Under the pieces are notes generated by a model. It did no database searches and was not told the DNA's origin. It saw only the letters and a list, made by a program, of their open reading frames with translations. The position numbers and the translations under genes are program-made. From positions 1 to 64,000 of the forward strand of contig JANLSU010000017.1 in assembly GCA_031362565.1 (NCBI GenBank): a stretch of DNA of 64,000 bases. Direction: 5' to 3'. Within the stretch, counting starts at the first letter, position 1. Each line of letters opens with the position of its first letter. This document shows positions 6,406-51,153 of this stretch, piece by piece. The stretch is from a bacterium (lineage in GTDB: Bacteria > Krumholzibacteriota > Krumholzibacteriia > G020349025).

Positions 6406-7335
6406 TCACTCCGCGCCGCTGTGTATTCTTGGATACAGGCGGCGTGTCGCGGCGTCAATCTGCTCCCACGCCGTTCGCTCACAGTCCGGCCCGAGGGGTG
6501 GTCCGACAAACGACCGCATGGTCGTCGCCGTGACGTCGACCAACCACACGACGGGAACGCGCAGTAGAGGGTAGTCGAGTTGTGCTTCTTCGGCGTCGAG
6601 GGGCGCGTTGCCGGCGAGCACGAAACGATGGTCGTCGACCCACGCCGCGAAGTTGATCGATTCGGTGGTCGTCACCCAGTGCAGGACGAGCCGGCCGGTG
6701 GATTTCTCGAGCAGCTGCCAACCGGTGTCGGCGTCAGCGCCCATGCCGCCCCGTTGGTCGAACTCGATACCGACCATTCGATCCAGCACCCACCGGCCAC
6801 TCGGCGATGGAATGAGTACTCCAAGCCGGGCGCGCCGCTGCTCTCTTTCCGACGCCAGGTCGATAACGATGCTGGTCTTCAACTGCGGCATCATGTAGTC
6901 GCGTGACGACAGCAGATCGTCCAGTGTGATTCCCGGCCGGCATTCGGAATGGGCGCGAATCCACGCTGCAAGCGGATCGCGGCGGAATACCGCCCGCACA
7001 TCCGCCGGCAAGACTGCGTCCGCCGTGCGCTGCGGGCGCTCGAGTGCCACCGCAAGCGATGACTTCCCGCCCCGCCTCCATGGACTCGTGCGCGCTGCCG
7101 CCCAAGCGACACGCAGCGCTGCAACCACCGAGTCGGTGCGAGCCCCCGACACGGCACTCACCGCCGGTACGATGGCCCGCACGCGGCCGATTGAATCAGC
7201 CGCGACCTGCACGATCACAACGCCGTGCGTGCGCGCATAGTCGAGTTCGACGGTGCGTGGTGATTCAGCGGCGGCGAACGCCGCACGCACTGCAAGCCCG
7301 CAGACAAGGACTGCCGCACCCCAGGAAGCCATCAT
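6406..7335 (-). CDS. Hypothetical secreted protein
   Basis: The ATG at 7335 overlaps the upstream stop (ATGA). Signal-peptide-like N-terminus ending AAFA. No family recognised. Confidence 0.55.
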   Translation of the reverse strand: MMASWGAAVLVCGLAVRAAFAAAESPRTVELDYARTHGVVIVQVAADSIGRVRAIVPAVSAVSGARTDSVVAALRVAWAAARTSPWRRGGKSSLAVALERPQRTADAVLPADVRAVFRRDPLAAWIRAHSECRPGITLDDLLSSRDYMMPQLKTSIVIDLASEREQRRARLGVLIPSPSGRWVLDRMVGIEFDQRGGMGADADTGWQLLEKSTGRLVLHWVTTTESINFAAWVDDHRFVLAGNAPLDAEEAQLDYPLLRVPVVWLVDVTATTMRSFVGPPLGPDCERTAWEQIDAATRRLYPRIHSGAE

Positions 7336-8060
7336 TTGTAGAGCTGTTTCACATCCGCCCAGGTCTTCATGGCGACTGCGACCGGCGCGCAGGGGCTCGG
7401 CACGGCGCTCGTAACGTGCAGCAAATGCCCGCAGCAGTTGCAGCAGTACTCCACGGTGCCGTACAGCAGGACCTCGGTGTCCGTTCCGATGTACTGGCTC
7501 AGTTCCGGAAAACCATAACCGGCGCGGAAATACCACGGACACCCTTCGGCGCAAGTCTCGATTGCGAACGCCGACGACGCGTCCTGCTGTAGCACCAATT
7601 TCCCGTGCGCGATCGGCGTTGGGTCAGGTCCGACGGTGGCGAACACGATAATCGGGAAACCCCAAGTGGTCGGATCGAACGCGCGACTGAAAGCCGTGGG
7701 ATCGCTGGCAAACAAGCCACAAATCGGCAACACCGCCTGCCCCACTGCCTCGTAGACGTAACTCGTATTGAGGTCGACGCCGCCGTCGAATACCTGCAGC
7801 GTCCGTGCCCCGCTCTGCCGTGGAATCGACTGGATGCAGGTCCACGGTCCGCAGGGATAGATGGCGCGGCGCCGGATGCCGATCCCCACGCAATCACTCG
7901 CACCGCCGGTGTCATCGATCTGAACGTCGAGAATGACCCCGGCATGCGGTGACCCCGGAGCCGACAAACTCGTCGCGGTCATGTGGATGGAACCGGCAAA
8001 GGCAGAGGTTGCGGCGAACGCAGCGGCGACAACAAGCAGCGGAAGGTAGCGTTGGTTCAT
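7332..8060 (-). CDS. Secreted Cys-rich protein with W-x2-VK-x-LY C-terminal tail
   Basis: GGGAGG RBS, signal peptide ending AFA, a CCNCC motif, and C-terminus VAVAMKTWADVKQLYK. Confidence 0.75.
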   Translation of the reverse strand: MNQRYLPLLVVAAAFAATSAFAGSIHMTATSLSAPGSPHAGVILDVQIDDTGGASDCVGIGIRRRAIYPCGPWTCIQSIPRQSGARTLQVFDGGVDLNTSYVYEAVGQAVLPICGLFASDPTAFSRAFDPTTWGFPIIVFATVGPDPTPIAHGKLVLQQDASSAFAIETCAEGCPWYFRAGYGFPELSQYIGTDTEVLLYGTVEYCCNCCGHLLHVTSAVPSPCAPVAVAMKTWADVKQLYK

Positions 8061-8261
8061 GATGGCCCTCCCGGGTCGAGGTAGAGCGCGAACCGCACCA
8101 ACTGCATGATTATAACGCTGCGAGGCCTCGAGAAACAGGCTCTTCTCCCGCGCCTGAACCCGACCTTGGCATGCACCCTTCGTTCCAGTACCCTGCAGTT
8201 GCCGCGACGCCTTCGAGATGCATCCAAGGGACGAGCGGCTTCTTCACCGAAGGAGATTGCC

Positions 8262-8978
8262 ATGACGAGTGGATTCCCTGGCACCCTGGTGGCGGCGGCA
8301 CCGATCGAGGCACGCCGCGCCTACCTGCGTAAGGCGCTTGGATACGCTTGCGGTGGCCTGGCGATTTGTGGAATGACGGGCGTCGCGTCGATGCTCTTCC
8401 TGGCCTCGCACCCGACCCTCCTGACCGGCTTCGGCCCTATGGCGATCATCTTGGGTTGCTGGGCGCTGACGAATTTCGTCGCGCGGCCCATGGTCTTCGG
8501 GACTGGAAACAAGATCGCGGGTTTCTTCCTCGGCACCGTTGCACAGGGTGCGGCGCTCGGATTCTTGCTCCTGGTCGCCGTCCTCGTCTCGAAGCAGGAC
8601 TTCGGCAATCCGTACTCCTACATCGGCATGGCAATCACGCTGACGCTCGTGGCCGGCATGGGGATCGCCGGCTACGTGCTGGCGGGGCCGCGCGAGTTTT
8701 CGCTCTTGGGCGCCGGACTCTCGGCCACGTTTTTGCCCATGCTGGTTCTGATGGCGGTGTCGTTCGCATTCCCGCAGTTCGTCGGTGGGACGTTCGGCAT
8801 CATTGTCGCCGCCGTATTCGTCCTCATCTCGGCGGCGGGGCTCCTGTACCAGTTGAACCTTGTCGTGCACAAGTTCACGACCGAGATGCATGTCGAGGGC
8901 GGCTACCTGATCGCCATCGGCGTCGTCGTGCTCTTCTGGAACATTCTCTCGCTGTTGCTTCGCATGCGCCGGCGGTGA
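8262..8978 (+). CDS. Bax inhibitor-1/YccA-family membrane protein
   Basis: AAGGAG RBS, R.AYLRK at the N-terminus, about 7 hydrophobic segments and a LFWNILSLL end. Confidence 0.75.
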   Translation: MTSGFPGTLVAAAPIEARRAYLRKALGYACGGLAICGMTGVASMLFLASHPTLLTGFGPMAIILGCWALTNFVARPMVFGTGNKIAGFFLGTVAQGAALGFLLLVAVLVSKQDFGNPYSYIGMAITLTLVAGMGIAGYVLAGPREFSLLGAGLSATFLPMLVLMAVSFAFPQFVGGTFGIIVAAVFVLISAAGLLYQLNLVVHKFTTEMHVEGGYLIAIGVVVLFWNILSLLLRMRRR

Positions 8979-8988
8979 AACAACTGCG

Positions 8989-10275
8989 ATGAATGCCGAT
9001 ATCTGCGCCGAACTGGCCTGGCGCGGCCTGATTCAACAGACCACGGACGACGCGTTTCTGCCGGGCTGGCTGCGCGACGGCAGCCGCACGCTCTATGCGG
9101 GGTTCGACCCTACGGCCGACAGCCTGCATGTCGGTAGCCTGATGCCACTCATGGCGCTGCGGCGTTTCCAGCGCGCCGGCCACCGGCCGATCGCGCTGGT
9201 GGGTGGCGCCACGGGCATGATCGGCGATCCGAGCGGCAAGAGCGAGGAGCGGAATCTGCTCTCGGTCGAGGTGCTGCGCGCCAACGTCGCGGCCCTCGAC
9301 ACCCAGATCCGCCGCTTTCTCGACTTCGATTCGCCGTCGTGCGGCGCGACGGTCATCGACAACTACGAGTGGATGCACAAGTTCAGCTTCTTGGAATTCC
9401 TGCGCGACGTCGGCAAGCATGTTCCGGTCGGCGTCATGCTGGCCAAGGATTCGGTCAAGAACCGCCTCGGTCGCGAAGACACGGGTCTCAGCTATACCGA
9501 GTTCAGTTACATGCTCCTGCAGGCGTACGACTTCGTGGTTCTGAGCCGCACGCACGGTTGCCAATTGCAAATCGGCGGCAGCGATCAATGGGGCAACATC
9601 ACGGCGGGCATCGATCTCGCACGGCGCTTGGGCGCCGGGCAACTCTATGGGTTCACGTTTCCGCTCCTGCTGACGTCCACCGGACAGAAGATGGGCAAGA
9701 CCGAACGCGGCACCATCTGGCTGTCCAAGGAGCGTACGAGTCCGTATGCGTTCTATCAGTACTGGCTAAACGCGAGCGATGCGGATGCCGGAACGTGTTT
9801 GCGGTTTCTGACCGAATTGCCGCGCGAAGAAATCGAGGCTCTCGATGCCTCGCGCGCCGCGGAACCGGAGAAGCGCGACAGCCAGCGCCGCCTGGCCGAG
9901 TGGATGACGCGCCTGGTGCACGGCAGCGAGGGTCTTGCCACCGCCGAGCGCGCCACCAGCATTCTCTTCGGTGCGGAGATCGAGCACCTCGACGACGGCC
10001 AGCTCCTGGAGATTTTCGCCGACGTCCCCAGCAAGACCGTGGCGAAGGATCGTCTGGCGGGAAGCGGCCTGCCTTTGGTCGATGCTCTCGTCGACTCGGG
10101 TCTGGCGGCCTCCAAGAGCGAAGCCCGGCGCACGATCGAGCAAGGTGGCGCCTACATCAACAACCGGCGCGCGGCTGATTTGGCGCGGACGATCACGGCG
10201 GCGGACTTGGCGAGCGAGACGGTCGTCGTGCTGCGCTCTGGCCGCAGAAAATACGGTCTCCTGCGGTTCTCCTGA
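8989..10275 (+). CDS. tyrS: Tyrosine--tRNA ligase
   Basis: YAGFDPTADSLHVG, IGDPSGK, QIGGSDQWGNI, KMGKT and a C-terminal S4 domain. Confidence 0.97.
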   Translation: MNADICAELAWRGLIQQTTDDAFLPGWLRDGSRTLYAGFDPTADSLHVGSLMPLMALRRFQRAGHRPIALVGGATGMIGDPSGKSEERNLLSVEVLRANVAALDTQIRRFLDFDSPSCGATVIDNYEWMHKFSFLEFLRDVGKHVPVGVMLAKDSVKNRLGREDTGLSYTEFSYMLLQAYDFVVLSRTHGCQLQIGGSDQWGNITAGIDLARRLGAGQLYGFTFPLLLTSTGQKMGKTERGTIWLSKERTSPYAFYQYWLNASDADAGTCLRFLTELPREEIEALDASRAAEPEKRDSQRRLAEWMTRLVHGSEGLATAERATSILFGAEIEHLDDGQLLEIFADVPSKTVAKDRLAGSGLPLVDALVDSGLAASKSEARRTIEQGGAYINNRRAADLARTITAADLASETVVVLRSGRRKYGLLRFS

Positions 10276-10439
10276 CCCTTCCCGACATCCCCCACCGCGG
10301 CATCCCAGCGCATCCGGCACCCGGCGCCCCAAGAGTCGATTGCGGACCGCGAGACCGAGGGTTATCCTCGTGGCATCCCGCCGACATCGACGATTGCCGG
10401 TTTGGTGCCCTGGCGGATCGGCAATCCGTGAGGAGACTG

Positions 10440-12320
10440 ATGTTCATGCGAATTCACCCGAGTCCTGCCTTCGCCCGCAACACCCGTTTTGGAATCGTGG
10501 TTTCAGTTGCCGCCCTGGCGCTTTTCGGCAGTTGTAACGAACCACAGGCGCCCAATCCCGCCGGCGACGGCGCGATTCACGGCAGCTACAGCCCGACGGG
10601 TTCCACACTCGAATTTCGCCTCGAGTCCCCGGCGGGCGGCGTGTCGCCGCTCCAGCTCTTGGCGTCGGATCTGACGTACGACGCGGCCACCCAGGAGTTG
10701 CACGCCCAGGTCGCGCTCCGCAACAGCGGCAGTGAGCCGCTTCCGGGTCCGGATGGCGTGCTCGTCGGCGGGTTCGACCCGGCGGCGGTGACGCCGCGAA
10801 ACGCTCAAGGGCTGGCTTGCCCGGCATGCCCGGACTGCCCTTGTCCGTGGCCCTGGAGATTCGAGCATCGAGGCACGTACGGCGACGGCATCCTGTCGCC
10901 CGGCGAAACCTCGACGCCTGTCGAGTGGATCATCTTCGATCCAGCCGGTGAGAGTTTCGCGTTCCGCGCCTTGCTCGTGGAAGCCGCCGCCGCACCGGGC
11001 GGCATCTCGGGCCACGTGTTCGCCGACGCGAATGCCAACGGCCACCGCGACTTGGGAGAAACCGGCATCGCGAATGCGTCGCTGACGCTCGTCCACGGCG
11101 ATGTCGCGACCGGAACTCAGACCGACGAAACCGGCGGTTACTCCTTCCAGGTGTCTGAACCGGGGCTCTACGAGGTCGTGCGCGCCGAGACGAACGCTTG
11201 CCAACCAACCTCGCCTCCGCGCCAGCAGATCATTATCCTGCGCCGTGCGGACGGCAGTCTGACCGGGTTCGACCACGCGGACTTCGGCTGCAGTAGCGAC
11301 TCACCGGGCGACAGCACGACTGTCACCGGCATCGTTTTCAACGACGAGAATCGCAACGGGGTGCACGAAGACAGCGAGACGGGAGTCGCCGGCGTGCTCA
11401 TCACCGCCAACATGCTGTTCTGTCCGTCCTTTGCGGCCATCGAAACGCACACCGATGAACACGGGCTCTACCGGATCCAGTTGGCATGCCGGCCGCCGTA
11501 CATGATTGCCCACGCGCCGGTTCCCGGCACTGTCGACACGAGTCCGAATCCGGTTTTCGTGCCGCTACGCCGCAACGGAACAGAGCCGACCCTGCCGCCG
11601 GAACCACCCGCGACCGTCTTGCACGTGAACTTTGGCGTCGCGCGCGCGGTTGTGGGCCAGGAGGTCTTCATCGACGGCTATGTGTTTCGTGATGTGAATC
11701 AGAATGGCGTGCGCGACGGTGGCGAACCCGGTGTCGCTGACGTGGGAATCAACGCCAGTGGCCTCCTCTGCTTGACCCCCATCGCGGTGATCACCCGCAC
11801 CGATGCAGACGGGCACTACCGTGTGAAGGGCGCCGACGTGCATTGCCCGCTACCCTGGCAGGTCGGGCACGAGCCCCGGCTGAGACTGTGCGACACGTCG
11901 CAAAACCCGATTGAACTCTACGCACCTGCACCGCCGGACGGCGTCTTCCACCAGGATTTTGGGGTTACGGCCTGCAACGACTCGGTGCCGCCCGCGGGGT
12001 TCACGATCGAGGGCTTCGTATTCTTCGACCTGAATCAGAACGGGGTGCACGACCGAGTCGAGGCGGGCGTGCCGAATGCGCTGCTCTACTTGGCTTCACC
12101 GTGCGACGTTCTGCTCCAAGCCCGCACCGATCCCAATGGCCATTACGTCTTTGGGCCCGAGATGACCGCCAACTGCCCATTCGATGGCGTGGTGCAGGGA
12201 GAACCCGTATTTCCGCACCACACGACACCCAATCCATTCCCGATCGATCCCCACACGGTGCCACCGGGCGGCGTCGTGGAGGCCGACTTCGGAGTGCTGC
12301 CGTTGCCGCCACCGCGGTAG
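10440..12320 (+). CDS. Lipoprotein with four SdrD B-like repeats
   Basis: Lipobox LFGSC and four G.VF.D.N.NG..D..E.G[VI] repeats, each ending in [DN]FG. Confidence 0.8.
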   Translation: MFMRIHPSPAFARNTRFGIVVSVAALALFGSCNEPQAPNPAGDGAIHGSYSPTGSTLEFRLESPAGGVSPLQLLASDLTYDAATQELHAQVALRNSGSEPLPGPDGVLVGGFDPAAVTPRNAQGLACPACPDCPCPWPWRFEHRGTYGDGILSPGETSTPVEWIIFDPAGESFAFRALLVEAAAAPGGISGHVFADANANGHRDLGETGIANASLTLVHGDVATGTQTDETGGYSFQVSEPGLYEVVRAETNACQPTSPPRQQIIILRRADGSLTGFDHADFGCSSDSPGDSTTVTGIVFNDENRNGVHEDSETGVAGVLITANMLFCPSFAAIETHTDEHGLYRIQLACRPPYMIAHAPVPGTVDTSPNPVFVPLRRNGTEPTLPPEPPATVLHVNFGVARAVVGQEVFIDGYVFRDVNQNGVRDGGEPGVADVGINASGLLCLTPIAVITRTDADGHYRVKGADVHCPLPWQVGHEPRLRLCDTSQNPIELYAPAPPDGVFHQDFGVTACNDSVPPAGFTIEGFVFFDLNQNGVHDRVEAGVPNALLYLASPCDVLLQARTDPNGHYVFGPEMTANCPFDGVVQGEPVFPHHTTPNPFPIDPHTVPPGGVVEADFGVLPLPPPR

Positions 12321-12335
12321 CTTGCGGCAGGGCGT

Positions 12336-13532: not shown

Positions 13533-13534
13533 GG

Positions 13535-13930
13535 TCAGTTGTCTTCGAGCGACAGGACCGCGACCTTGAGCGAGAGGCTCAATCTTCCCGAGGTTCCACG
13601 GTGAATTTCGATCACGTGCTGGCTGCCTTCGTCGAGCAGCGCCTGCCGCAAATCCGCCACCCGGGCATCCGTGGCGGGCTTGCCGTCCAACGCCTCGATG
13701 ACATCGCCCTTCAGAAGTCCTGCCACTTCCGCCGGCGAGCCTTTGCGCACGCCACTCACCGTGATGACGTGATAGTCACCCACCGCCTGTGCCCAGCGTT
13801 CAACGGCCGCCGAGAGAGCGGTGCGATCGGCGCCTGGCGCGGCGGCTGCCGGTGCAGGACTTTGAGCGCGAGCATTCAACGACCAGCACAACACAGCGGC
13901 AAGCACCACGGGCATCCACATTCGACGCAT
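13535..13930 (-). CDS. Small secreted PDZ-domain protein, possibly internally deleted
   Basis: GAAGGG RBS and signal peptide ending ARA. The PDZ motif V..GSPAE.AGL..GDVI..LDG follows a short helical stub directly. Confidence 0.6.
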   Translation of the reverse strand: MRRMWMPVVLAAVLCWSLNARAQSPAPAAAAPGADRTALSAAVERWAQAVGDYHVITVSGVRKGSPAEVAGLLKGDVIEALDGKPATDARVADLRQALLDEGSQHVIEIHRGTSGRLSLSLKVAVLSLEDN

Positions 13931-16734: not shown

Positions 16735-16742
16735 CTCCCCGC

Positions 16743-18407: not shown

Positions 18408-18650
18408 ATGATCACAAAGCTTCAGAAGTGGGGCAACAGCCTCGGTCTCCGCATCCCGAAATCGTTCGCAGCCGAGACGCAGGTTGAAGCGGGATCGACC
18501 GTCGACATCTCTGTCCAAGACGGCGGCCTCGTGGTGCGGCCCATACGGCGCAAGAAATACACCTTGAGCGAGTTGCTCCGGCGGGTCAGCTCAAAAAATC
18601 TACACGACGAGATCGCTACGGGTGAGCCGGTTGGGCGGGAGGTCTGGTAG
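18408..18650 (+). CDS. mazE: AbrB/MazE antitoxin
   Basis: KWGNSLGLRIPK, YTLSELL and G.PVGREVW. The stop overlaps the toxin start. Confidence 0.92.
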   Translation: MITKLQKWGNSLGLRIPKSFAAETQVEAGSTVDISVQDGGLVVRPIRRKKYTLSELLRRVSSKNLHDEIATGEPVGREVW

Positions 18651-19006
18651 TGGCCCGAGGTTACGTGCCGGAGCGGGGTGAGATCGTCTGGCTCTTGTTC
18701 AATCCACAGGCGGGGCACGAGCAGTCCGGCCGTCGGCCGGCTCTGGTGATTTCGCCGCGGGCGTACAATCGCAAGGTCGGACTCGCCTTGTTTTGCCCTG
18801 TCACCTCTCATGTGAAGGGCTATCCATTTGAAGTCCTTCTCCCCCCGGGACTCGAAGCCCGGGGAGCGATTCTCTCGGACCAACTGAAGAGTCTCGATTG
18901 GCGGGCGCGAAAGGCCACACTCCTCTGCGTCGTACCGCCGGAAGTCCTCGAGGAGACGCTCGCTCGCATCCTCGCCCTGGTCGATCCAGAGCCACCCCAC
19001 AGCTGA
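18650..19006 (+). CDS. mazF: MazF endoribonuclease toxin
   Basis: YVPERGEIVW, PQAGHEQSGRRPALV, KGYPFEV and DQLKSLDWRAR. Confidence 0.93.
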   Translation: MARGYVPERGEIVWLLFNPQAGHEQSGRRPALVISPRAYNRKVGLALFCPVTSHVKGYPFEVLLPPGLEARGAILSDQLKSLDWRARKATLLCVVPPEVLEETLARILALVDPEPPHS

Positions 19007-25736: not shown

Positions 25737-26309
25737 CTAACGAAACATCGACTTGACCGTGCTCCAGGTTTGTTGTTCAACCGCGACCGTGCAAACGCGA
25801 GCTGGATCGTTCAAGAATGCCTCCCCGCCTCCGATACACAGTTTCGTGAAAACAGGGGCATCGCACAGTGTGACCAACGGGCACGGGAAGTGGTGAGAAT
25901 TGAAGTGCCTCTGGATCGAGAACGTGTGAGGCCCGATTGCCACCAGAGACGTAAATTGGATCGTGTACAGCGGCACGAATGGCCCCGGCTCGCACCCCGG
26001 AAACGCGATGTTGCAACCGCCGGAGACGGGATTGCCGAGTGCCAAGTTGGCGGCAGGGCTGGGAGTGACGGTTGTCAGCCACGCAGGATCCGCCCCTGTC
26101 AGCTTAAACTCCGCACCGGTCATGCCCGCTGCGCCGGCGTCGCCACCAAGAACTGCCCCCACATAGACCGTGAACTGGACGAGTGGAGTCGCCACGCCGT
26201 CGCAATCGCTGCCATCGGGAGCGAAGAAGACGCCGATCGAGGACGCCTGCGCAACGCCCGCCATCAAGAACAACACCGTTGCAATGGAACCGACGGCTAG
26301 CGATTTCAT
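25737..26309 (-). CDS. Secreted 7-Cys paralogue A with W-x2-VK tail
   Basis: GGAGG RBS, signal peptide ending AQA, close paralogue of the two neighbours, ends VAVEQQTWSTVKSMFR. Confidence 0.85.
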   Translation of the reverse strand: MKSLAVGSIATVLFLMAGVAQASSIGVFFAPDGSDCDGVATPLVQFTVYVGAVLGGDAGAAGMTGAEFKLTGADPAWLTTVTPSPAANLALGNPVSGGCNIAFPGCEPGPFVPLYTIQFTSLVAIGPHTFSIQRHFNSHHFPCPLVTLCDAPVFTKLCIGGGEAFLNDPARVCTVAVEQQTWSTVKSMFR

Positions 26310-26372
26310 GCTGTGTCCTCCCTTCGAGGCCCCCACCGCCCGACGCTCGACGAGCACCCCAGACAAGGGCGT

Positions 26373-26951
26373 CTAGCGAAACATCGATTTGACCTTAGTC
26401 CACGTTTGCTGTTCCACTCCAACCGCGCAAAAACGGGCGGGGTCGTTCAGGAAGGCCTGGCCGCCTGCGACACACAACTTCGTGAAATGTACATCGCACA
26501 GTAACAGCAACGGGCAAAGGAACTCTGGGCCGTGGGGCGGATTGAGGTGGTACCGGATCGCGAAGGTGTGCGGTGGGATTGCGACCGGCGACGTCATTTG
26601 GATCGTGTACAACGGCACGAAGGGCCCCGGCAGGCACCCCGGAAATGCGATGTTGCAACCGAAGACAACCGGGTTGCCCAACGTCAAGTTGGCGGCTGGG
26701 TTCGGAGTGACGGTTGTAATCCAGGCCGGATCCGCCCCGGCGAGCGAGAACTCCGCACCGACAATGCCTGCCGTAGCCGCATCGCCGCCAAGAACCGCTC
26801 CCACGTAGATCGTGAACGGGACGAGCGGTGTCGCTACGCCATCGCAATCACTGCCATCCGGCGCAAAGAAGACGCCGATCGACGACGCCCGCGCGACGCC
26901 CGTCACAAAGAACAACAACGCTGCGACGAAACCGATTGCTCGAGACTTCAT
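26373..26951 (-). CDS. Secreted 7-Cys paralogue B with W-x2-VK tail
   Basis: AGGAGG RBS, signal peptide ending ARA, ends VGVEQQTWTKVKSMFR. Confidence 0.85.
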   Translation of the reverse strand: MKSRAIGFVAALLFFVTGVARASSIGVFFAPDGSDCDGVATPLVPFTIYVGAVLGGDAATAGIVGAEFSLAGADPAWITTVTPNPAANLTLGNPVVFGCNIAFPGCLPGPFVPLYTIQMTSPVAIPPHTFAIRYHLNPPHGPEFLCPLLLLCDVHFTKLCVAGGQAFLNDPARFCAVGVEQQTWTKVKSMFR

Positions 26952-26996: not shown

Positions 26997-27575
26997 CTAG
27001 CGAAACATCGATTTGACCGTGCTCCACGTTTGCTGTTCAACGCCGACCGTGCAAGCGCGGGTGGGATCGTTCAGGAAGGCCTGCCCGCCCGCGACACACA
27101 GCTTCGTAAAATTGCCACCGCACAACCTGAGCAGCACGCAGGCATATATCGGATCGGCAACGACGAGGTGCCGACGGATCGCGAAGGTACGGGGCGCGAT
27201 TGCGACCGGCGACGTGAATTGGATCGTGTACAGCGGCACGTACGGCCCCGGCTGGCACCCCGGAAAGGCGATGTCGCAACCACCGTTCCCAACGAGAACC
27301 GGATTGCCGATGGCAATGTCGGCTGCTGGGTTCGGCGTGACGGTTGTAATCCACGCCGGATCCGCTCCGGCGAGCGAGAACTCCGCACCGACAATGCCCG
27401 CCGCAGCGGCGTCGCCGCCAAGAACCGCGCCCACGTAAATGGTGAACGGGACGAGCGGAGTCGCCACACCATCACAATCACTGCCATCCGGCGCGAAGAA
27501 CACGCCGATCGAGGACGCCTGGGCGACGCCCGTCATCAACACCGCTGCAACGGAACCACTGGCTCGAAGCTTCAT
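26997..27575 (-). CDS. Secreted 7-Cys paralogue C with W-x2-VK tail
   Basis: GGGAGG RBS, signal peptide ending AQA, ends VGVEQQTWSTVKSMFR. Confidence 0.85.
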   Translation of the reverse strand: MKLRASGSVAAVLMTGVAQASSIGVFFAPDGSDCDGVATPLVPFTIYVGAVLGGDAAAAGIVGAEFSLAGADPAWITTVTPNPAADIAIGNPVLVGNGGCDIAFPGCQPGPYVPLYTIQFTSPVAIAPRTFAIRRHLVVADPIYACVLLRLCGGNFTKLCVAGGQAFLNDPTRACTVGVEQQTWSTVKSMFR

Positions 27576-27738
27576 GCGATGCCCTCCCCTGCCGACGGCA
27601 ACAAAGCGGTCCGCGGGGCGCGGCTCGCCTGAAGGTTGCCTCGGAAGTGACTGCACAATTATAGGTCCCCGCCGATGGGATTTCCAGGCGCATGTTGTGG
27701 GGCAGTGTCGGGCTCGCAGAGGCCTGACGCGGCGTCCT

Positions 27739-36453: not shown

Positions 36454-36454
36454 A

Positions 36455-39213: not shown

Positions 39214-40053
39214 ATGCGATTCTCGCTTCGAACCGCTGTTCTTGGATCTCTGGCTCTGGGTCTCTTGCTGGTGGATGTGGCCGGCGCCACGGCACCCGGG
39301 GCCTGCCGCCGCAAGCGCAACCCACCGAACCAAAATCTCTTCTGGGACTGTGTCGCCGAGGGCTCGACATGCGGTGCCGGCAATGCGTGCCAGACGATTT
39401 CGTACGGCGGCATCGTGCCGTACAGCACCTGCGAATGCTTGCCCGTCGTGCACGATCCGGATGACTTCTCTTATGGCACCGGTGGGCTCTGGACGGCTGT
39501 CGTGACCAGTGGTGCAGCCGTGCCGGGCGGCAATGTGACCATCGCGCTTGCACCCGGGATCAACGCCCTCGTCATCTATCCCAACGTCGACATCGATGCC
39601 GGCGCGATTACCAACGCGCAGGAGTTCACCGACAGCGGCGATTTCACCGGTTCGATGACGCTGGCGATTGGCGCCGCGACGGGCGTCGACTCGTTTGCCG
39701 TCAATGTCACGGCACTGACCCTGGCGATGACCTCGTTCGACTTCGAGGGCAACCCCACCGGGGCGACGGCGATGACGCTCGCGCCGGACGGCGGCACGGC
39801 CACTGGCCTTTTCGACGTCACGAACAGCACGATTCAATTCGACGAGCCGGTGCACTGCCAGGCGACAAATGACCTGTTCGGGAACTTCGACTACTATTTC
39901 CGGCCGATTCTGATCGAAGGCGCTGCAGGCAAAGCGGGTGTCGCCGGCGGCCCGAATCCGTTCTCCGTCTTCGCAACGGGGACCCTCGTGCCGCCGCAGG
40001 TCGTGTCCGTTCAGCAGCGGCGATGGGGCGACGTGAAGCAACTCTATCGCTGA
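39214..40053 (+). CDS. Secreted protein with Cys-rich N-module and W-x2-VK tail
   Basis: GGGAGG RBS, signal peptide, a six-Cys N-terminal module, ends VSVQQRRWGDVKQLYR. Confidence 0.75.
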   Translation: MRFSLRTAVLGSLALGLLLVDVAGATAPGACRRKRNPPNQNLFWDCVAEGSTCGAGNACQTISYGGIVPYSTCECLPVVHDPDDFSYGTGGLWTAVVTSGAAVPGGNVTIALAPGINALVIYPNVDIDAGAITNAQEFTDSGDFTGSMTLAIGAATGVDSFAVNVTALTLAMTSFDFEGNPTGATAMTLAPDGGTATGLFDVTNSTIQFDEPVHCQATNDLFGNFDYYFRPILIEGAAGKAGVAGGPNPFSVFATGTLVPPQVVSVQQRRWGDVKQLYR

Positions 40054-41600: not shown

Positions 41601-41699
41601 GGCGCGGCCCCTTGGTGTTTGCAGCGGCGCGTGCGCCAGTGCCCTGAGAGGCCTGGCGCACTGCGCCGCACCCCCTTTGAACGACCCGGAGATGCGAAG

Positions 41700-44380: not shown

Positions 44381-45495
44381 CGCGCACGATGATGCAGGCC
44401 GTCGCGGTTCACCCGGGCCAGCCCGGAAGTGTGCACTTGGCGGCACTGGCCAAGCCGGCGCTCGACGACGTGCCGAATGGCCGGGGTGTGCTGGTCAAGG
44501 TGTTGCGCGTCGGCGTCGATGGCACCGACAAGGAAATCAACGCCGCCGAGTACGGCGCCGCCCCCGCGGGATACGATTTTTTGGTCATCGGGCATGAGAG
44601 CTTCGGGCGCGTCGAAGCCGTGGGCCCCAATGTCACCGAGTTCGCACCCGGCGACTATGTCGTTGCGACCGTGCGCCGGCCGGGCTCGAGCTTGTATGAC
44701 ACGATCGGCACGTATGACATGACGACCGACGATTCGTATTTCGAGCGCGGCATCAATCTGCGCCATGGCTATCTCACCGAATACTATGTCGACGATCCGG
44801 AGTACATCGTCAAAGTGCCGCAGGGCCTCAAGAACATCGCCGTGCTGCTCGAGCCGGCCTCGGTCGTCGAGAAGGGCATCGCGCAGGCGTACGAGATCCA
44901 GCGACGCCTCAAGGTTTGGCGGCCGCGCCGGGTGGCGGTCGTGGGTGCCGGCACCATCGGCCTCATGGCATCGATGTCGCTGCGCCTTCGCGGTCTCGAG
45001 GTGACAACGTTTGGGCGGACGCCGAAGCCGTACCTCAATTCGAATCTGCTGGAAGAGATCGGCGCCCGTTACATCACGACCACCGACACGACGCTATTGG
45101 AGGCGTCAAAGAAGTACGGGCCGTTCGACCTCATCTTCGAGTGCACGGGTTTCTCACCGATCGTGTTCGAGGCGATGCAGGCGCTCGGCAAGAATGGCGT
45201 GCTCGTGCTGACGAGCGTCACCGGCGGCGACCGGATGGTCGAAATCCCGGCCGACAGGATCAATTTGGAGTTCGTCCTCGGCAACAAGGTCGTCGTGGGC
45301 TCGGTGAATGCCAACCGCGAATACTTCGAGGCTGGCGTCCGCGATTTCTCGCAGTGCGAGGCGCAGTTCCCCGGCTGGCTCGACCAGTTCCTGACCCATC
45401 CGGTCGAGGGCCTCGAGAACTACGCCGAGTTGCTCGACAAGCTGACCCACGCCAAGGGTGCGATCAAGGTCTACTGCAACGTCGCGGCGCTCTGA
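44377..45495 (+). CDS. Glucose 1-dehydrogenase-like zinc MDR dehydrogenase
   Basis: GVDGTD, GHE, ATVRRP, ERGI, GAGTIG and GSVNAN. Confidence 0.85.
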
Positions 45496-45593
45496 GGCAC
45501 ACCGAATTCGCGGCGGTCGTGCTAGGCTGCCTCCCCAAAGCGCCGGCCGGGGTCCAAGTTCGCCCGGCCAACGCTCGATGCCCTGGGAGGGCC

Positions 45594-46121
45594 GTGAAGC
45601 CGCTGCTCGTGCTCGATCACTGGATCGAAAAAGTTGCGGTCGGGGCCATCGTGCTCCTGCTCAGCGTTATGATCCTGCTCGCCTTCGGGCAGGTCTTGAT
45701 GCGGAATATTTTTCATTCCGCATTTCCGGGCGTCGACGTCCTCTTGCGGCATCTCGTCCTGTGGGTCGGGTACTTCGGGGCCATCATTGCGACCGGGCAC
45801 CGGCGGCATCTGCGCATCGAGGTCGTTGAACTCGTCTTGTCGGAGCGCGCCCGGGTCGTGTGCGCCGTCATCGCCAATCTCTTTGCGGCGGCCATCTGCA
45901 TCGTGCTCCTGCGGGCGGCGATTTCCTTCGTGCACCTCGAGCGGGCCGAAACGACCACCACCATGATCGGCCTGCCGGCGTGGGTGTTTGCCATCGTCGT
46001 ACCGGTGGGTTACGCCGCGATCGGGTTCCGCTTCATCGTCCGGGCGGTCGAGATCGTCGCCGGCAGTCCGGAGGTCCGCCGCAACGCCATGGCGGGCCCC
46101 GGCGAAACGCGAGTCCTATGA
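45594..46121 (+). CDS. dctQ: TRAP transporter small permease
   Basis: QVLMR, LVLWVGYFGA..HLRIE and 4 TMs. GTG start after GGGAGG. Confidence 0.82.
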   Translation: MKPLLVLDHWIEKVAVGAIVLLLSVMILLAFGQVLMRNIFHSAFPGVDVLLRHLVLWVGYFGAIIATGHRRHLRIEVVELVLSERARVVCAVIANLFAAAICIVLLRAAISFVHLERAETTTTMIGLPAWVFAIVVPVGYAAIGFRFIVRAVEIVAGSPEVRRNAMAGPGETRVL

Positions 46122-47377
46122 TTCTCGTTCTCGTCTGTCTCGGGCTCGTGGCGCTTTTCCTCGCCGGCTCGCCGGTGTTCGCAATTTTGGGCGCCATCGC
46201 GCTCTACGGGTTCGCGTCGCACGGGATCGATCCGTCGACCGTGATCATCGAACTGTATCGTCTGACGCGCGAGCCCGTCTTTCTCGCCATCCCGCTCTTC
46301 ACGTTTGCCGGTTACATGCTGGCGGAGAGCAAGGCGCCACAGCGGCTCGTCGCACTCGCACAAGCCCTCATCGGCTGGCTGCCGGGCGGCGTGGCGATCG
46401 TCGTGCTGGCGAGCTGCGCCGTTTTCACCGCTTTCACGGGTGGCTCCGGCATCACGATCGTCGCACTCGGCGGCCTCGTGTTTCCGATCCTGCGCGCCGA
46501 AGGGTATTCCGAAAAGTTCTCGCTTGGGCTGGTGACGTCGTCGGGGAGCATGGGGCTCCTGTTCCCGCCCAGCCTGCCGATCATTTTGTACGGCACGCTT
46601 TCGGGAACGTCGATCGACGCGCTCTTCCGGGCCGGGATTGTTCCCGGCACGTTGCTCATCGTGGCGGTTGCGTTGCTCGGCGTCCGGCAGGGGGCGCGCA
46701 TGCCGCGCCACAAATTCGACGCCGGAGTTGCGATGCGGGCGATTCGCGCCGCGGGCTGGGAAATTCCTCTGCCCTTCGTCGTCATCGGCGGCATCTATGC
46801 GGGCTGGTTCACCGCCAATGAAGCCGCTGCCGTCACCGCTTTCTACACCTTCTTGGTCGAAACCGTCATTCGCCGCGAGGTGAGCCTGCGGAAAGGCATT
46901 CCGCATGTGATGACCGAGAGCATGATGTTGGTGGGCGCCGTCCTGATGATTCTGGCGGTCGCCATGGGACTGTCGGGGCTGCTCATCGATCAGGAAGTGC
47001 CGCAGCGGCTCTTCGCGTTGCTGCAGAGCGCCGGCGCCACGCGCTGGGTGTTCTTGATCGCCCTCAATGTGTTCTTGCTCTTGGTCGGCATGGTGATGGA
47101 GATTTTCTCGGCGCTCGTCGTGGTGCCGCTCATTGTGCCGGTCGCGAAGCAATATGGCATCGACCCCGTGCACCTGGGGATCATCTTCCTGGCGAATCTC
47201 GAACTGGCGTACGTGCTGCCGCCCACCGGCCTCAACGTTTTCCTCGCCAGCTCGCGGTTCCGCAAACCGATCCTCGAAGTGGGGCGTGCGGCGCTGCCGT
47301 TCATCCTGATCCTGGCGCTCGGCACCCTCGTCATCACGTATGTGCCCGCTCTGAGCCTGCTGTTCGTCGAGCACTGA
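46118..47377 (+). CDS. dctM: TRAP transporter large permease
   Basis: AIPLFTFAG, LFPPSLP, FTANEAAAV, IDPVHLG and PPTGLNVF. Confidence 0.9.
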   Translation: MILVLVCLGLVALFLAGSPVFAILGAIALYGFASHGIDPSTVIIELYRLTREPVFLAIPLFTFAGYMLAESKAPQRLVALAQALIGWLPGGVAIVVLASCAVFTAFTGGSGITIVALGGLVFPILRAEGYSEKFSLGLVTSSGSMGLLFPPSLPIILYGTLSGTSIDALFRAGIVPGTLLIVAVALLGVRQGARMPRHKFDAGVAMRAIRAAGWEIPLPFVVIGGIYAGWFTANEAAAVTAFYTFLVETVIRREVSLRKGIPHVMTESMMLVGAVLMILAVAMGLSGLLIDQEVPQRLFALLQSAGATRWVFLIALNVFLLLVGMVMEIFSALVVVPLIVPVAKQYGIDPVHLGIIFLANLELAYVLPPTGLNVFLASSRFRKPILEVGRAALPFILILALGTLVITYVPALSLLFVEH

Positions 47378-47465
47378 CGGGCTCTTGGCCTTGCGCTAGT
47401 GGGCTACAGGCCTTTGCTTTAGATTAGACGGTGACTCGGCGGCGGCTTCTCGGGCGAGGCTTCGA

Positions 47466-48125
47466 ATGTGCGTTCCCTTTGCGACCCGGCAGTGGCATTG
47501 GCCGCGCGGTGCGGCGCTCCAGGCGGCACTGCTTGGCGTAACGGTCGTGTGCCTGGCGCACGCCGAGAACGGCCGCCCTGCCGCCCAGGACAGCACGCTG
47601 CAGCCGGCGCCTTTCACGCCCTTGGCACCGGCATCGGCGCTCAACATCCGGGATCTCGGGCCGGGCTCGATTCCGCTCTCCATCGCACCGCCGCCGCCGG
47701 CGTTCCACGTGATCCCGACCTATCCCCCTCCGCCTGCCGTCGACGAATCGGCATTTGCGGATGCGCCGGCCCCAACGGTTGCCGGAACGGCCGACCTGGG
47801 TCCGAATCTCCAGGTTTCTCCCGACGCGCTGCGCGACGACTCGGCGGATTCTTGGCTCCGCCCACGCCGGCTCGTGCACCCCAAGATCCCCGAGAAGATC
47901 ATCCGGCAGCGCAAGATCGATCAAACCGTCGTTCTGTCGGCAAACGTCGGCGCCGATGGCCGCGTGCGCGAAGTGCGGGTCCGGCACGCCGCGCGCGATT
48001 GCGACGAATGCACCCAGAGTGCGGTCGCGGCGGCGCGCGGTTACATCTACGAGTCGCCCGGATCCAAGGCCGGCCGGGATGGCGTTTGGGCGACGATCAA
48101 AATGCGATTTAGCGTCCGTCCCTGA
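47466..48125 (+). CDS. TonB C-terminal domain protein
   Basis: Hydrophobic N-terminus, Pro-rich linker and V.L...VGADGRVREVRV..AVAAAR. Confidence 0.6.
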   Translation: MCVPFATRQWHWPRGAALQAALLGVTVVCLAHAENGRPAAQDSTLQPAPFTPLAPASALNIRDLGPGSIPLSIAPPPPAFHVIPTYPPPPAVDESAFADAPAPTVAGTADLGPNLQVSPDALRDDSADSWLRPRRLVHPKIPEKIIRQRKIDQTVVLSANVGADGRVREVRVRHAARDCDECTQSAVAAARGYIYESPGSKAGRDGVWATIKMRFSVRP

Positions 48126-48352
48126 ACGAAGTGGCGCTGGGCGGCGACACCGTCCACGACACGGCCTTTTGCAGTTGCATCACAACTGGCATTCTGCACG
48201 CACGGCGTGCCCCCTCACCCCCTCCGCCACAACCTCGCAACCCCGCGTTCTACATAGGGCCTCCGGCTCCAGACGATTTCGGTCGGATCTATGCAGTACT
48301 GCCTCTCGACTCCGGGCTCATCCACTGGGAAGCCCCGAGGGGAGGTCCGAAG

Positions 48353-50704
48353 ATGTTCGCGATGCAATCCACCGTGCCTCCGCGCCGCTACGGCCGGAAC
48401 GCGTTCCTGGCGACCGTCGGTCTGATGTGCGCGCACGCCGCCGCGGCGCAAACGCGAACGTTTACGGATGATGCGGATTTTGACACGGGCGTTCTCGAAA
48501 CCGTGAACCACACGGCCGTGCACGATCAGTTGCAGTTGGATGTCGCGACGCCTTCCTTCTCGATCCTGTGGATCGCCAATTCGGCGCGCGGCACGCTGGT
48601 GCGCATCGACGCTACGACCGGTGCAGTTCTGGGTGAGTACCGGACGGCGCCGCTCGGGCGGCTCCGGAATCCGTCGCGCACCGCCATCGATGCCCTCGGC
48701 AACGTGTGGACCGCGAATCGCAGCGAAAATGCGATGGGGCGTGGATCGGTCGTCAAAGTGGGCGTCTGTATCGGCGGCACGCGGGTCGCGAAATTGCCCG
48801 ACGGCACGATCGCACCAGACCCGCTCGGTGACTATGTCGCGCCGCCGTTTCAGATCTGCACTGCGGTCGACCGCGACCACGACGGGCTCATTCGCACTTC
48901 GCGCGGCTTGGGCGACGTGCTGGCCTGGCCCGATGTCACCGACGGCGCAGGCGGCGCGGACGGCGTCGTGGCCGATGCCGACGATGAATGCATCTTGGTC
49001 TACCAACGCACGAGCGCACCCAACGCCTGTCAGGTGAGCCTGGATGCCGGTGGCCACCTGTGGGTTGGTGCCTACCCGCTCGCCATGTTCGACGTTCTCG
49101 ATGGCACGACGGGTGCGATCGAACGGTCATTGCCGCTCGGCACGGGCGGCTACGGCGGGTTCATCGACGCCCAGGGCGTGCTCTGGTCGACCCACCTGAC
49201 CAACGGGCTGTTGTTGCGCTACGACACGACAACCGACGTCGCGGCGTCCATTCCGGTCCGTCTGTCGTCCGGCCTCACACGCGGCCCCGATGGATCGCTG
49301 TGGGTTTCCATGTGGACGAACAACACGGTCACCAAACTCGATGCGCAAGGGGTGCAGATCGCCGGCTTCCCGGTGCCCAGCTTCGGCGGCGGCGCGCTCG
49401 GCATCGTCATCGGCCCGGATGGCGACGTCTGGGTCGCGAACACCAACACCAACGCCGTATCCCGGCTCGGGCCGCTCGGCGGGCTGCGCAAGCGCATCAC
49501 GGTAACCGGATCACCGAGTGGTTTGAGCCTGGATGACGCTGGCAAAGTGTGGGTCACGTCACAGACCCAGAACACCGCCTTGCGGATCGATCCGAATGCC
49601 GGCAGCGATGGACTGGGAGCGGTCGACCTGACCGTCGCTCTCGGCGCCGGCGCGGGGCCGCAGACGTTCGGCGACATGGCGGCCCGAATCACCGCGTCGG
49701 TCGTCGCACCGGAAGGCACCTGGAGCGTCGTGCATGACGGGGGCCGCGCCGCGGTCGAGTGGAGTGCGATCGCTTGGCATGGCGACGAGCCCGCCGGCAC
49801 GCAGCTCACGGTCGAAGCACGCGCTGCCGAATCGCCGGCTGATTTGGATGCCCTGCCTTGGATTCCGGCCGGCAACGGTGTGGGCCTCGGCGCTGGGGTG
49901 CTGCGCGGACGATTCGCGGCGTTGCGCGTTCATTTCACGCCTGCCCCGGCGGTGAACGCGTCACCCGTTCTCGGCGATCTTTCGCTGACTGGAACGGCCA
50001 ACCGCGCGCCGGATTGCACCACTGCCCAGGCGAAGATCGAGCGGATTTGGCCGCCGAATGGGCGCATGGTCGCGGTGCCGATCTTCGGAGTGACAGATCC
50101 CGATGGCGATCCCGTTGCGATCACGATCACTGGGATCACGCAAGACGAGCCGGTCGCGCGGCGCGGCCACGGCGGGCGGCGCGAGCCCGATGGCATTGGC
50201 GTCGGCACTTCGCTGGCGCAAGTGCGTGCCGAGCACGCCGCCTACCGCTGGGGACACGGCAACGGCCGGGTCTACGCGATTCACTTCCGCGCCGATGACA
50301 ATCACGGTGGCACCTGCGACGGCCAGGTTTGGGTGTGTGTGCCGATGGAACTGGGGCACCGCGGTGCATGCAAGGACGACGGCCAGGTGTACGACTCCAC
50401 CGTCTCGGATCCGGTTTGCCCGGGGCGCCACCGCCTCGAGACGTGGCCGCATCCGAATCCGTTCAATCCGTCGACGACGCTGCACTATGAATTGCCGCAA
50501 CAGGTGCGCGTGCGGGTTGCGGTGTACGACGTCCGCGGCCAGCAAGTCCGATTGCTCGCGGACGAAGATCAACCGGCAGGTCCACAAGCGCTCTACTGGG
50601 ACGGACGTGACGCGCGTGGCAACGCACTCCCGACCGGTGTGTACCTGTACCGCGTTGACGCCGGCGTATTCGAAGCGCACGGCAGGCTCGTGATGGTGAA
50701 ATAG
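48353..50704 (+). CDS. Secreted Vgb-like beta-propeller protein with FlgD-Ig tail
   Basis: GGAGG RBS, repeated D..G.VW blades, a WPPN module and PNPFNP..WDGRD..GVY. Confidence 0.78.
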   Translation: MFAMQSTVPPRRYGRNAFLATVGLMCAHAAAAQTRTFTDDADFDTGVLETVNHTAVHDQLQLDVATPSFSILWIANSARGTLVRIDATTGAVLGEYRTAPLGRLRNPSRTAIDALGNVWTANRSENAMGRGSVVKVGVCIGGTRVAKLPDGTIAPDPLGDYVAPPFQICTAVDRDHDGLIRTSRGLGDVLAWPDVTDGAGGADGVVADADDECILVYQRTSAPNACQVSLDAGGHLWVGAYPLAMFDVLDGTTGAIERSLPLGTGGYGGFIDAQGVLWSTHLTNGLLLRYDTTTDVAASIPVRLSSGLTRGPDGSLWVSMWTNNTVTKLDAQGVQIAGFPVPSFGGGALGIVIGPDGDVWVANTNTNAVSRLGPLGGLRKRITVTGSPSGLSLDDAGKVWVTSQTQNTALRIDPNAGSDGLGAVDLTVALGAGAGPQTFGDMAARITASVVAPEGTWSVVHDGGRAAVEWSAIAWHGDEPAGTQLTVEARAAESPADLDALPWIPAGNGVGLGAGVLRGRFAALRVHFTPAPAVNASPVLGDLSLTGTANRAPDCTTAQAKIERIWPPNGRMVAVPIFGVTDPDGDPVAITITGITQDEPVARRGHGGRREPDGIGVGTSLAQVRAEHAAYRWGHGNGRVYAIHFRADDNHGGTCDGQVWVCVPMELGHRGACKDDGQVYDSTVSDPVCPGRHRLETWPHPNPFNPSTTLHYELPQQVRVRVAVYDVRGQQVRLLADEDQPAGPQALYWDGRDARGNALPTGVYLYRVDAGVFEAHGRLVMVK

Positions 50705-50823
50705 GCGGCGGCACCGCCGCTCGGACCGCCCACGGTTTGGTGCTGTCGGCGTCCTCCTCGAGTCGGGTACAATGCGACCATCCATCCCCCGTCGGGGTCG
50801 CACCGGCTCGAAGGAGGCGTTCC

Positions 50824-51153
50824 ATGCATCCACTGCGATTGATCGCACCGATGCTTCTCGCCCTAGTCGTGAATTCAGCGCACGCGGAATCGATCGAGGT
50901 GCTGGCGCTGGGGCCGGTCACTCCCAGATTCTTGCAAGTACTGGCACCGGTGATACCCAGCAACCCTGCGTTCCCGTGTCCGACACTCGTGCTTTGCGAT
51001 GCACCGACGTTGACGCGCATTTGCGCCCCGCAGACGCTGACGTTCGCCGTGAATCAGCCGAACGGCTGTTCGTTCGATGGACCGGTGCGCGGCGAATGCT
51101 CGGTTGCGGTCACGGCCGACAGCTGGTCGCGCGTCAAACATCTGTATCGGTAG
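50824..51153 (+). CDS. Short secreted relative of the 25.7-27.6 kb paralogues with W-x2-VK tail
   Basis: AAGGAGG RBS and signal peptide ending AHA. FPCPTLVLCDAPTLTRIC matches FPCPLVTLCDAPVFTKLC of paralogue A. Ends VAVTADSWSRVKHLYR. Confidence 0.7.
   Translation: MHPLRLIAPMLLALVVNSAHAESIEVLALGPVTPRFLQVLAPVIPSNPAFPCPTLVLCDAPTLTRICAPQTLTFAVNQPNGCSFDGPVRGECSVAVTADSWSRVKHLYR

Follow-up and report, generated by a model that had tools for sequence, protein, structure and literature searches.

Why should six secreted proteins, encoded at scattered positions on a single stretch of bacterial DNA, all end in the same short peptide? This question is raised by the window analysed here, a stretch of 64,000 nucleotides (contig C29 of genome G000, a Krumholzibacteriota assembly of 5.41 Mb with 65% GC in 133 contigs), in which a sequence-only reading had pointed to six open reading frames with a gapless 16-residue tail as carriers of a candidate undescribed C-terminal sorting signal. 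Translation confirmed all six tails (6/6), each with the stop codon directly after it. The tail is a modular tag of 16 residues that is strictly confined to the C-terminus of exported proteins, and it is widespread, with copies in almost all genomes of the phylum and also in uncultured phyla related to it. It probably acts as an address label for the cell envelope or as a means of fastening proteins to it, the cell surface being the most likely place.

A regular expression, W..[VIL]K.[LMIV][YF][RK], applied to the 50,604 six-frame open segments of at least 60 residues in the genome, gave 66 matches: 45 ended at the last residue, 21 had 1–8 residues after them and none lay deeper inside a segment. 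When a 21-column hidden Markov model (HMM) built from those 66 tails was searched against 59,238 segments of at least 50 residues (8.79 million residues), 118 matches reached the cut-off of 11 bits. Every one of them (118/118) ended no more than 13 residues short of the stop codon, whereas position alone would place about 23% there; weak matches came close to this background rate (19 of 77 at 5–7 bits and 54 of 257 at 3–5 bits). The pattern W-x-x-[VILMF]-K-x-[VILMF]-[YF]-R followed by a stop codon occurs 50 times in the DNA of the genome and 0 times when read backwards. Finally, an alignment of 56 gapless tails (A3), searched against a library of 1.84 billion representative proteins, retrieved 431 proteins at E ≤ 0.001; in 148 of the 150 best library representatives, no more than 9 residues separate the last core copy from the C-terminus. 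Taken together, the regular expression, HMM, reversed-DNA and library counts exclude chance, and the profile scan of the genome bears out the earlier claim that the tail is fixed to the C-terminus.

The motif can be written as [VT]-[AGS]-V-[EQ]-x-x-[TS]-W-[SGT]-x-[VI]-K-x-[LM]-[YF]-(R). With the 118 tails of the genome anchored on Trp (118/118 by construction) and positions counted from it, the preferences upstream are V 68 and T 22 at position -7, A 46, G 42 and S 14 at -6, V 88 at -5, E 49 and Q 20 at -4, and T 53 and S 36 at -1; downstream, S, G or T occupies +1 in 111 tails, followed by V 73 and I 23 at +3, K 114 and R 4 at +4, L 92 at +6, Y 95 and F 22 at +7, and R 81 at +8. The Trp, the Lys (114/118) and the upstream V-x-V-E are conserved across lineages. 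The residue after the Y/F is lineage-specific: R in most families, E, GE or DE (endings such as LYE and LYGE) in family f8, and LY alone in genome G044; since the terminal residue varies in this way, the conserved core is W-[SG]-x-[VI]-K-x-[LM]-[YF]. A Cys stands 6–13 residues before the Trp in 55 of the 118 tails. The absence of a transmembrane helix of the LPXTG, PEP-CTERM or GlyGly-CTERM type, asserted for the six window tails, extends to the whole set: in 77/118 a single residue follows the Y/F, no extension exceeds 13 residues, and a hydrophobic stretch is absent throughout.

The proposal that the tail forms a short amphipathic helix was likewise supported. The last nine residues (W..VK.LY(R)) exhibit helical amphipathic periodicity, with a moment of 1.56 at 100 degrees against 0.84 at 170 degrees, and the eight residues preceding them show strand periodicity (0.63 at 100 degrees against 1.10 at 170 degrees). 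An AlphaFold2 (AF2) model of the window protein encoded at 26373–26951, made from an alignment of 24 homologues (A1), has a mean predicted local distance difference test (pLDDT) score of 85: a beta-sandwich at residues 24–170 is modelled with pLDDT above 90, whilst the segment 171–192 reaches only 50–67 (block means 67, 63 and 50) and contains a detached short helix at 184–191. The tail is thus predicted to lie outside the passenger fold; an integral place in one shared fold, which would have refuted the sequence-only reading, was not seen. According to Foldseek, the modelled passenger resembles cohesin modules (2vo8, E 1.4e-5, TM-score 0.72 on the target). The corresponding model of the 7332–8060 protein, from 7 sequences, was uninformative (mean pLDDT 43).

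More than one copy of the core can be present. Among the 150 best database representatives, 9 contain the core at least twice. In P0161, two good copies are spaced by 20 residues at the end of the protein; P0158 contains four, of which each is poorer than the one before; and in P0170, P0178, P0197 and P0285 a mid-protein copy is combined with a terminal one, the layout of P0170 being domain-tail twice. P0158, P0161 and P0170 are lipoproteins. From these repeated and internal copies it follows that a free C-terminus is the rule and not an absolute need. P0166 (925 residues, no signal peptide) is a separate case, with five tandem repeats containing GWSALKALYRWSPLG and a sixth, weaker core copy upstream: this is likely an unrelated protein of the phage tape-measure type with a look-alike core, and hence a probable false positive for tail profiles.

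What kinds of protein carry the tail? After removal of the tail, the 118 proteins fall into 68 unrelated BLAST clusters, the largest of which (cluster 0) has 25 members, and the proteins are short (median 245 residues). Gene-based comparisons used a set of roughly 4,300 genes from a caller based on third-codon-position GC content, into which the tail genes were forced, so that the tail stands on roughly 1 in 40 genes of the genome (118 of ~4,300). Signal peptides were scored with a home-made heuristic in a strict and a lenient form, neither of which is equivalent to SignalP. In the strict form, 75 of 117 tail genes passed, as did 120 of 222 genes for FlgD-Ig cargo, against 654 of 2961 other genes of 100–600 residues (odds ratio 6.3 for tail genes, p 2e-21); the lenient figures were 104/117, 189/222 and 1489/2961, respectively. 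At the N-terminus, tail proteins thus match known type IX cargo in the frequency of signal-peptide-like sequences, and the link between tail and signal peptide that had been drawn from six proteins holds genome-wide, with no class of cytoplasmic carriers appearing. A lipobox-like N-terminus was seen in 9/118 carriers.

Pfam domains were found in 32 of the 118 carriers and none in the other 86. The domains comprise NHL, beta-helix, PD40, fn3, CHRD, trypsin-like, phosphoesterase, ice-binding, thioester (thioester/TQXA), Kelch, BNR and lamin-tail domains, all of which are typical of extracytoplasmic or extracellular proteins. Two NCBIfam families scored over their cut-offs, choice-of-anchor N (118 bits, cut-off 40) and the DNRLRE domain (47.7 bits, cut-off 34), and matches below cut-off were obtained to the ScyF-type PEP-CTERM NHL family (6 carriers), to an XDD4 exosortase-dependent family and to a MYXO-CTERM-anchored family. 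Names of the "choice-of-anchor" kind we take to denote families with alternative C-terminal anchors. These matches imply that relatives of several passengers bear known surface anchors in other organisms.

The tail can be compared with the FlgD-Ig domain, the C-terminal domain (CTD) of type IX cargo in this genome. A CTD profile iterated from eight PF13860 matches in the genome identified 228 proteins with a FlgD-Ig domain near the C-terminus, with an open-frame median of 768 residues against 285 for tail proteins. None of the 118 tail proteins contains this domain according to the iterated profile, and PF13860 and PF18962 also gave no match in them, so that the suspected mutual exclusion of tail and FlgD-Ig domain proved complete (0/118 tail proteins against 228 other carriers). 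For 38 of the 118 tail passengers, a paralogue (E < 1e-5) was found among the passengers of FlgD-Ig proteins. In the four paralogue pairs that we inspected, the similarity stops only a few residues short of the tail; this is clearest in a pair with 49% identity (C97:91400 and C18:23872), in which the tail starts where the linker and FlgD-Ig domain of the paralogue start. A truncated or remnant CTD as the origin of the tail was ruled out by hhalign, which detected no similarity, and this lack of profile similarity combined with the paralogue swap indicates that the tail is a replacement of the FlgD-Ig domain and not what is left of it. The two kinds of gene also lie close together: of the 228 non-tail members of the BLAST-linked FlgD-Ig family (179 with the domain), 63 lie within four genes of a tail gene, where 16% would be expected (hypergeometric p 5e-6), and enrichment beside tail genes was seen for this family only.

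The strict DNA pattern was found in 39 of 41 relatives and the tail pattern in 202 of the 208 genomes of the phylum (one GTDB class, nine families), with reversed controls giving 0–1 match per strand per genome. A relaxed pattern was applied to five of the six genomes without a match (G052 was left out): three have clear tails with other endings (LYE, LYGE, or LY and stop), namely G024 with 18 matches against 0 in the control, G200 with 28 against 1 and G044 with 5 against 0, and two are ambiguous (G013, 6 against 3; G047, 3 against 1). As the tail is near-universal within the phylum, phylogenetic profiling inside it was given up. A stricter 51-base pattern, scanned over one genome per species in 185,579 species, matched at least 122 loci; all 125 matches in the loci listed translate to tails, and the sequence upstream of them is diverse. 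By a hand count of titles among the loci listed, 26 are labelled Eisenbacteria/Eiseniibacteriota, 24 Krumholzibacteriota/-iia, 14 Gemmatimonadota/-etes, 8 Latescibacterota/-ia, 3 Fibrobacteraceae and 1 Acidobacteriota, with 46 labelled only "bacterium"; the matches listed all stem from metagenome-assembled genomes (MAGs) or records of uncultured organisms, with no Bacteroidota among them. The NCBI label does not always agree with the placement in GTDB: "Latescibacterota bin260" is G003 (= G210), a member of the window's own family.

Outside the phylum, the tail is present in at least three uncultured lineages. "Gemmatimonadota DHS20C21" (G208) is placed in a phylum apart, a small one with 12 genomes, all of which (12/12) have 12–51 strict matches, and the genomes G208, G209, G211 and G214 from other lineages combine the tail with SprA and 81–149 FlgD-Ig matches. 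A MAG labelled Acidobacteriota (G212, locus L067) has one convincing tail-like end, …VAVAPAPWSSVKRLYR, and SprA and FlgD-Ig were not found in it; this tail may derive from a stray contig in the bin, or it may be an isolated case or transfer.

Within the window itself, the six proteins represent three families, in line with the at least three unrelated passenger families first claimed: three tandem paralogues and the short 50824–51153 protein form one BLAST cluster, whilst the 7332–8060 and 39214–40053 proteins are singletons. None of the six open reading frames matches a Pfam or NCBIfam family over cut-off. On the minus strand, 7332–8060 encodes an exported Cys-rich protein of 242 residues and no known family with the tail VAVAMKTWADVKQLYK at 7335–7382, which is C-terminal, scores 27.8 bits with the tail HMM and is kept in 7/7 database homologues. 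The tandem genes follow on the same strand: paralogue 1 (25737–26366, likely start near 26309), a cohesin-like beta-sandwich of cluster 0, has the tail VAVEQQTWSTVKSMFR at 25740–25787 (34.5 bits); paralogue 2 (26373–26951, 192 residues) has VGVEQQTWTKVKSMFR at 26376–26423, a tail kept in all 24 database homologues; and paralogue 3 (26997–27656, with a likely start at 27575 giving 192 residues) has VGVEQQTWSTVKSMFR at 27000–27047 (33.9 bits). On the plus strand, 39187/39214–40053 encodes an exported protein of 279 residues, again of no known family, with VSVQQRRWGDVKQLYR at 40003–40050 (30.8 bits), and 50737/50824–51153 a short exported protein of 109 residues with VAVTADSWSRVKHLYR at 51103–51150 (32.7 bits), which belongs to cluster 0 and is akin to the C-terminal half of the tandem family. 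A Cys near the tail had been reported for five of the six; the count stands, whereas the distance does not, as the Cys lies 1–2 residues before the first Val and not 2–3. The window's ordinary housekeeping genes are all without the tail, in agreement with the statement that cytoplasmic enzymes lack it.

The window also encodes two FlgD-Ig proteins, the alternative tag class, both on the plus strand. One (3427–5532) is an exported cargo protein of 701 residues with PF00963 Cohesin (E 1.4e-8) and PF13860 (E 7.9e-9) that also matches the CTD profile; the other (48131–50704) is an NHL-repeat protein of 857 residues with Pfam matches to NHL, Vgb_lyase and PF13860 (E 2.7e-9), the last being its FlgD-Ig C-terminal domain. 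The 50824–51153 tail gene lies 120 bases downstream of the latter. Just upstream of the same cargo gene, an open reading frame of 219 residues (47466–48125, plus strand) has a degenerate tail-like end, ...VWATIKMRFSVRP, that was unreported by the HMM search. Cohesin-like modules accompany both kinds of C-terminal tag, in the 3427–5532 FlgD-Ig protein and in the largest tail family. Elsewhere in the genome, an apparent same-strand operon (C86:20087–27382) comprises genes for a 1238-residue FlgD-Ig protein, a PorV-family protein, a 526-residue FlgD-Ig protein and a 265-residue tail protein. Further genes of the window include a MazE/MazF-type toxin-antitoxin pair (18408–19006, plus strand; PF04014, PF02452) and a DDE transposase (68–1573, plus strand; PF13701) at the contig edge.

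How, then, is the tail to be read? Its site is the one taken by the type IX domain in sister proteins, which makes it a likely address label for the cell surface, of a kind not described before. More specifically, we consider the chances about even that it is a self-contained tag on Sec-exported proteins, acting through machinery of the type IX family as a short surface-sorting or anchoring signal in place of the ~90-residue FlgD-Ig domain. In favour of this surface-sorting role speak the C-terminal position and modularity of the tail, the signal-peptide rate of its carriers, the exclusion of FlgD-Ig, the paralogue swap and the gene adjacency, and, in addition, the extracellular kind of the passengers, their matches to anchor-named NCBIfam families, the phyletic link to SprA and FlgD-Ig, the presence of SprA, PorV-family and PorU genes in G000 and the existence of several type IX signal classes: one report (PMC12618676) describes type IX systems as using several signal classes with dedicated shuttles. 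In such a scheme, tail proteins would leave the cytoplasm by Sec export, after which a conserved envelope receptor would recognise the tail, predicted to consist of a short strand (V-x-V-E) and then a two-turn amphipathic helix (W..VK.LY), and would either pass the protein to the cell surface or hold it there.

Which components could act as this receptor? Genome G000 encodes one SprA (a 2234-residue frame), eight PorV-family genes and three PorU genes. An operon at C85:43380–64443 (loci L123 and L124) has two tandem PorU genes and a PorV gene at its head, and then genes for an M6-like protease with FlgD-Ig, a DUF5683-like lipoprotein (P0031) and its paralogue, an NHL protein, a 1175-residue barrel with weak similarity to SprA, and an Omp85 protein. 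The SprA-like barrel is also present in G209, G211 and G214, and the lipoprotein adjoins it in G209 and G211; with these queries, neither barrel nor lipoprotein was found in the fragmented G208 genome. The first candidates for the receptor would be outer-membrane components of the type IX family, namely SprA, the 1175-residue SprA-like barrel of the PorU-PorU-PorV operon or one of the eight PorV-family shuttles; this narrows the putative machinery to a set of candidates. We further propose, tentatively and with more doubt than confidence, that tail and putative receptor constitute a new envelope sorting or fastening system of several uncultured phyla of the Fibrobacteres-Chlorobi-Bacteroidetes (FCB) group, parallel to classical type IX secretion: its linear signal would have neither membrane helix nor folded domain, it would use an outer-membrane module of its own, maybe the 1175-residue SprA-like barrel and its lipoprotein neighbour, and it would serve at least 100 substrates per cell.

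Several observations weigh against surface sorting by type IX-family machinery. The PorV copy number (3–9) is unrelated to tail counts across the 41 relatives, and no machinery family is enriched beside tail genes, the PorV family reaching 2 of 7 (p 0.32). Compared with the domain profile, the tail profile gives an hhalign probability of 0.2%, identical to that of three column-shuffled controls, and a linear motif of 16 residues cannot form the Ig fold that is reportedly recognised by PorV. The co-occurrence with type IX components comes from only about four lineages, and many other genes share this distribution. Finally, multiple core copies, several of them in mid-protein, would by their arrangement suit a binding unit better than a translocation signal.

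This last point leads to the alternative that survives best, which we regard as possible and yet rather doubtful: the tail would be a docking peptide and not an export signal, binding non-covalently, in the manner of a dockerin, to a receptor domain or lipoprotein of the envelope or surface, so that small accessory proteins become fastened to large anchored ones. Candidate receptors for such docking are the cohesin-like modules, found in 25 tail proteins as well as in large FlgD-Ig proteins, or else the DUF5683-like lipoprotein beside the SprA-like barrel. Tandem or repeated cores in 8 of the 150 best representatives (with the phage-like P0166 set aside) fit this picture, as does the small size of the tail proteins (median 245 residues, open frame 285, against an open frame of 768 for FlgD-Ig) and the position of tail genes beside FlgD-Ig genes, with 50824–51153 lying just behind the 857-residue cargo gene. 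A cohesin-like fold is seen in the largest tail family (2vo8, E 1.4e-5), Pfam recognises a Cohesin domain in a FlgD-Ig protein of the window, and G209 and G211 have kept the SprA-like barrel together with the lipoprotein beside it. Docking alone would, however, leave unaccounted for how the small proteins cross the outer membrane; moreover, the tail has none of the calcium-binding repeats of dockerins, and in the AF2 monomer it is not packed confidently on its own cohesin-like domain (pLDDT 50–67).

A role in periplasmic retention is, in our view, unlikely. The tail would here act as an in-plane amphipathic helix or as a motif binding peptidoglycan or lipid, holding proteins at the membrane face or wall, much as the C-terminal helix of PBP5 anchors that protein at the periplasmic face of the membrane. 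The core does have a helical moment above its strand moment (1.56 against 0.84) and is rich in interfacial residues (W, Y/F, K, R), and both the repeated copies and the lipobox-like N-terminus of 9/118 carriers would be in keeping with an anchor. Yet the spacing and identity of W, K and V-x-V-E are kept across at least four lineages and 68 families, which is tighter than is usual for lipid-binding helices; the passengers are of extracellular kind, with relatives that are surface-anchored elsewhere; and the tail swaps with a secretion domain.

It is more improbable still that the tail is the substrate site of an enzyme, either as a processing or degradation tag or as a Lys acceptor that receives FlgD-Ig cargo from the PorU transpeptidase to give covalent cargo-partner pairs. 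Such a site could be seen in the Lys present at +4 in 114/118 tails, with three PorU paralogues in the genome, tail and FlgD-Ig genes adjacent to each other, and internal copies between duplicated domains as possible cleavage points; Arg replaces this Lys in 4/118 tails, however, no chemistry or enzyme can be assigned, and purifying selection in families A1 and A4 would hardly be expected if the tag marked over 100 conserved exported proteins for degradation. A last reading, in which the tails derive from a single shared domain, as its remnant or final element, or resemble each other by chance, could at most be suggested by the fact that 4/6 window proteins come from one family, and it is already refuted by the 68 unrelated clusters, the reversed-pattern controls of 0, the detached tail in the AF2 model and the absence of any FlgD-Ig relation in hhalign.

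C-terminal sorting signals decide surface display in bacteria, and the earlier classes (LPXTG, PEP-CTERM, type IX CTD) each led to new machinery. The present tail is covered by no HMM of Pfam or NCBIfam (release 20) in scans of the window open reading frames and the 118 carriers; none of the NCBIfam sorting-signal models matches the tail. We found no paper on such a tail or on C-terminal sorting in Eisenbacteria in a literature search that had subscription journals and bioRxiv supplements outside its range. The tail is missed by gene annotation, localisation predictors, Pfam and NCBIfam, and a tail profile would move thousands of "hypothetical proteins" of soil and sediment bacteria into the class of envelope or surface proteins and provide a handle on the receptor, for which the lineage-specific last residue may offer a covariation handle as well. 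If it is true that the tail suffices for surface delivery, a signal of 16 residues would make a very compact display tag.

Amongst known C-terminal signals, the type A CTD of type IX secretion (TIGR04183/PF18962; here the FlgD_ig domain PF13860) is the first for comparison. Like the tail, it is modular, stands at the C-terminus of Sec-exported and mostly extracellular-type proteins, and has hundreds of carriers per genome; the junction is the same in paralogues, and tail genomes have SprA and FlgD-Ig cargo (G000 also PorV and PorU). The tail differs in having 16 residues against the 70–100 of the domain and no seven-strand Ig sandwich, the AF2 prediction being a flexible linker and one short helix, and neither its sequence nor its profile resembles the domain, no domain HMM matching in the 118 carriers. 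The beta-signal of outer-membrane proteins, substrates of the beta-barrel assembly machinery, calls for an aromatic last residue and a beta-barrel passenger, and was considered and rejected: the last residue of the tail is R in 81/118 with an aromatic penultimate residue, and the passengers are of soluble type or beta-sandwiches.

Signals of the PEP-CTERM/exosortase, LPXTG/sortase, GlyGly-CTERM/rhombosortase and MYXO-CTERM types share with the tail a short motif at the extreme C-terminus of unrelated exported passengers, and the choice-of-anchor N, DNRLRE and ScyF-like NHL passengers bear such signals in other organisms. In these signals, the motif is followed by a hydrophobic transmembrane helix and a basic cluster, whereas the tail usually ends one residue past the Y/F and has no hydrophobic stretch. 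The cohesin-dockerin system resembles the tail in that a small C-terminal module is found on many unrelated proteins, in repeated copies and in a genome rich in cohesin-like modules; a dockerin, however, has ~70 residues with two calcium-binding repeats, in contrast to the 16 residues of the tail, which contains no such repeats, and Pfam dockerin models gave no match in the 118 carriers. The C-terminal amphipathic membrane anchors, such as the helix of PBP5/6 and the membrane-targeting sequence of MinD, are short C-terminal amphipathic helices with aromatic and basic residues, as the end of the tail is predicted to be; the tail departs from them in its far stricter conservation, in the additional V-x-V-E strand and in its exchange with a secretion domain.

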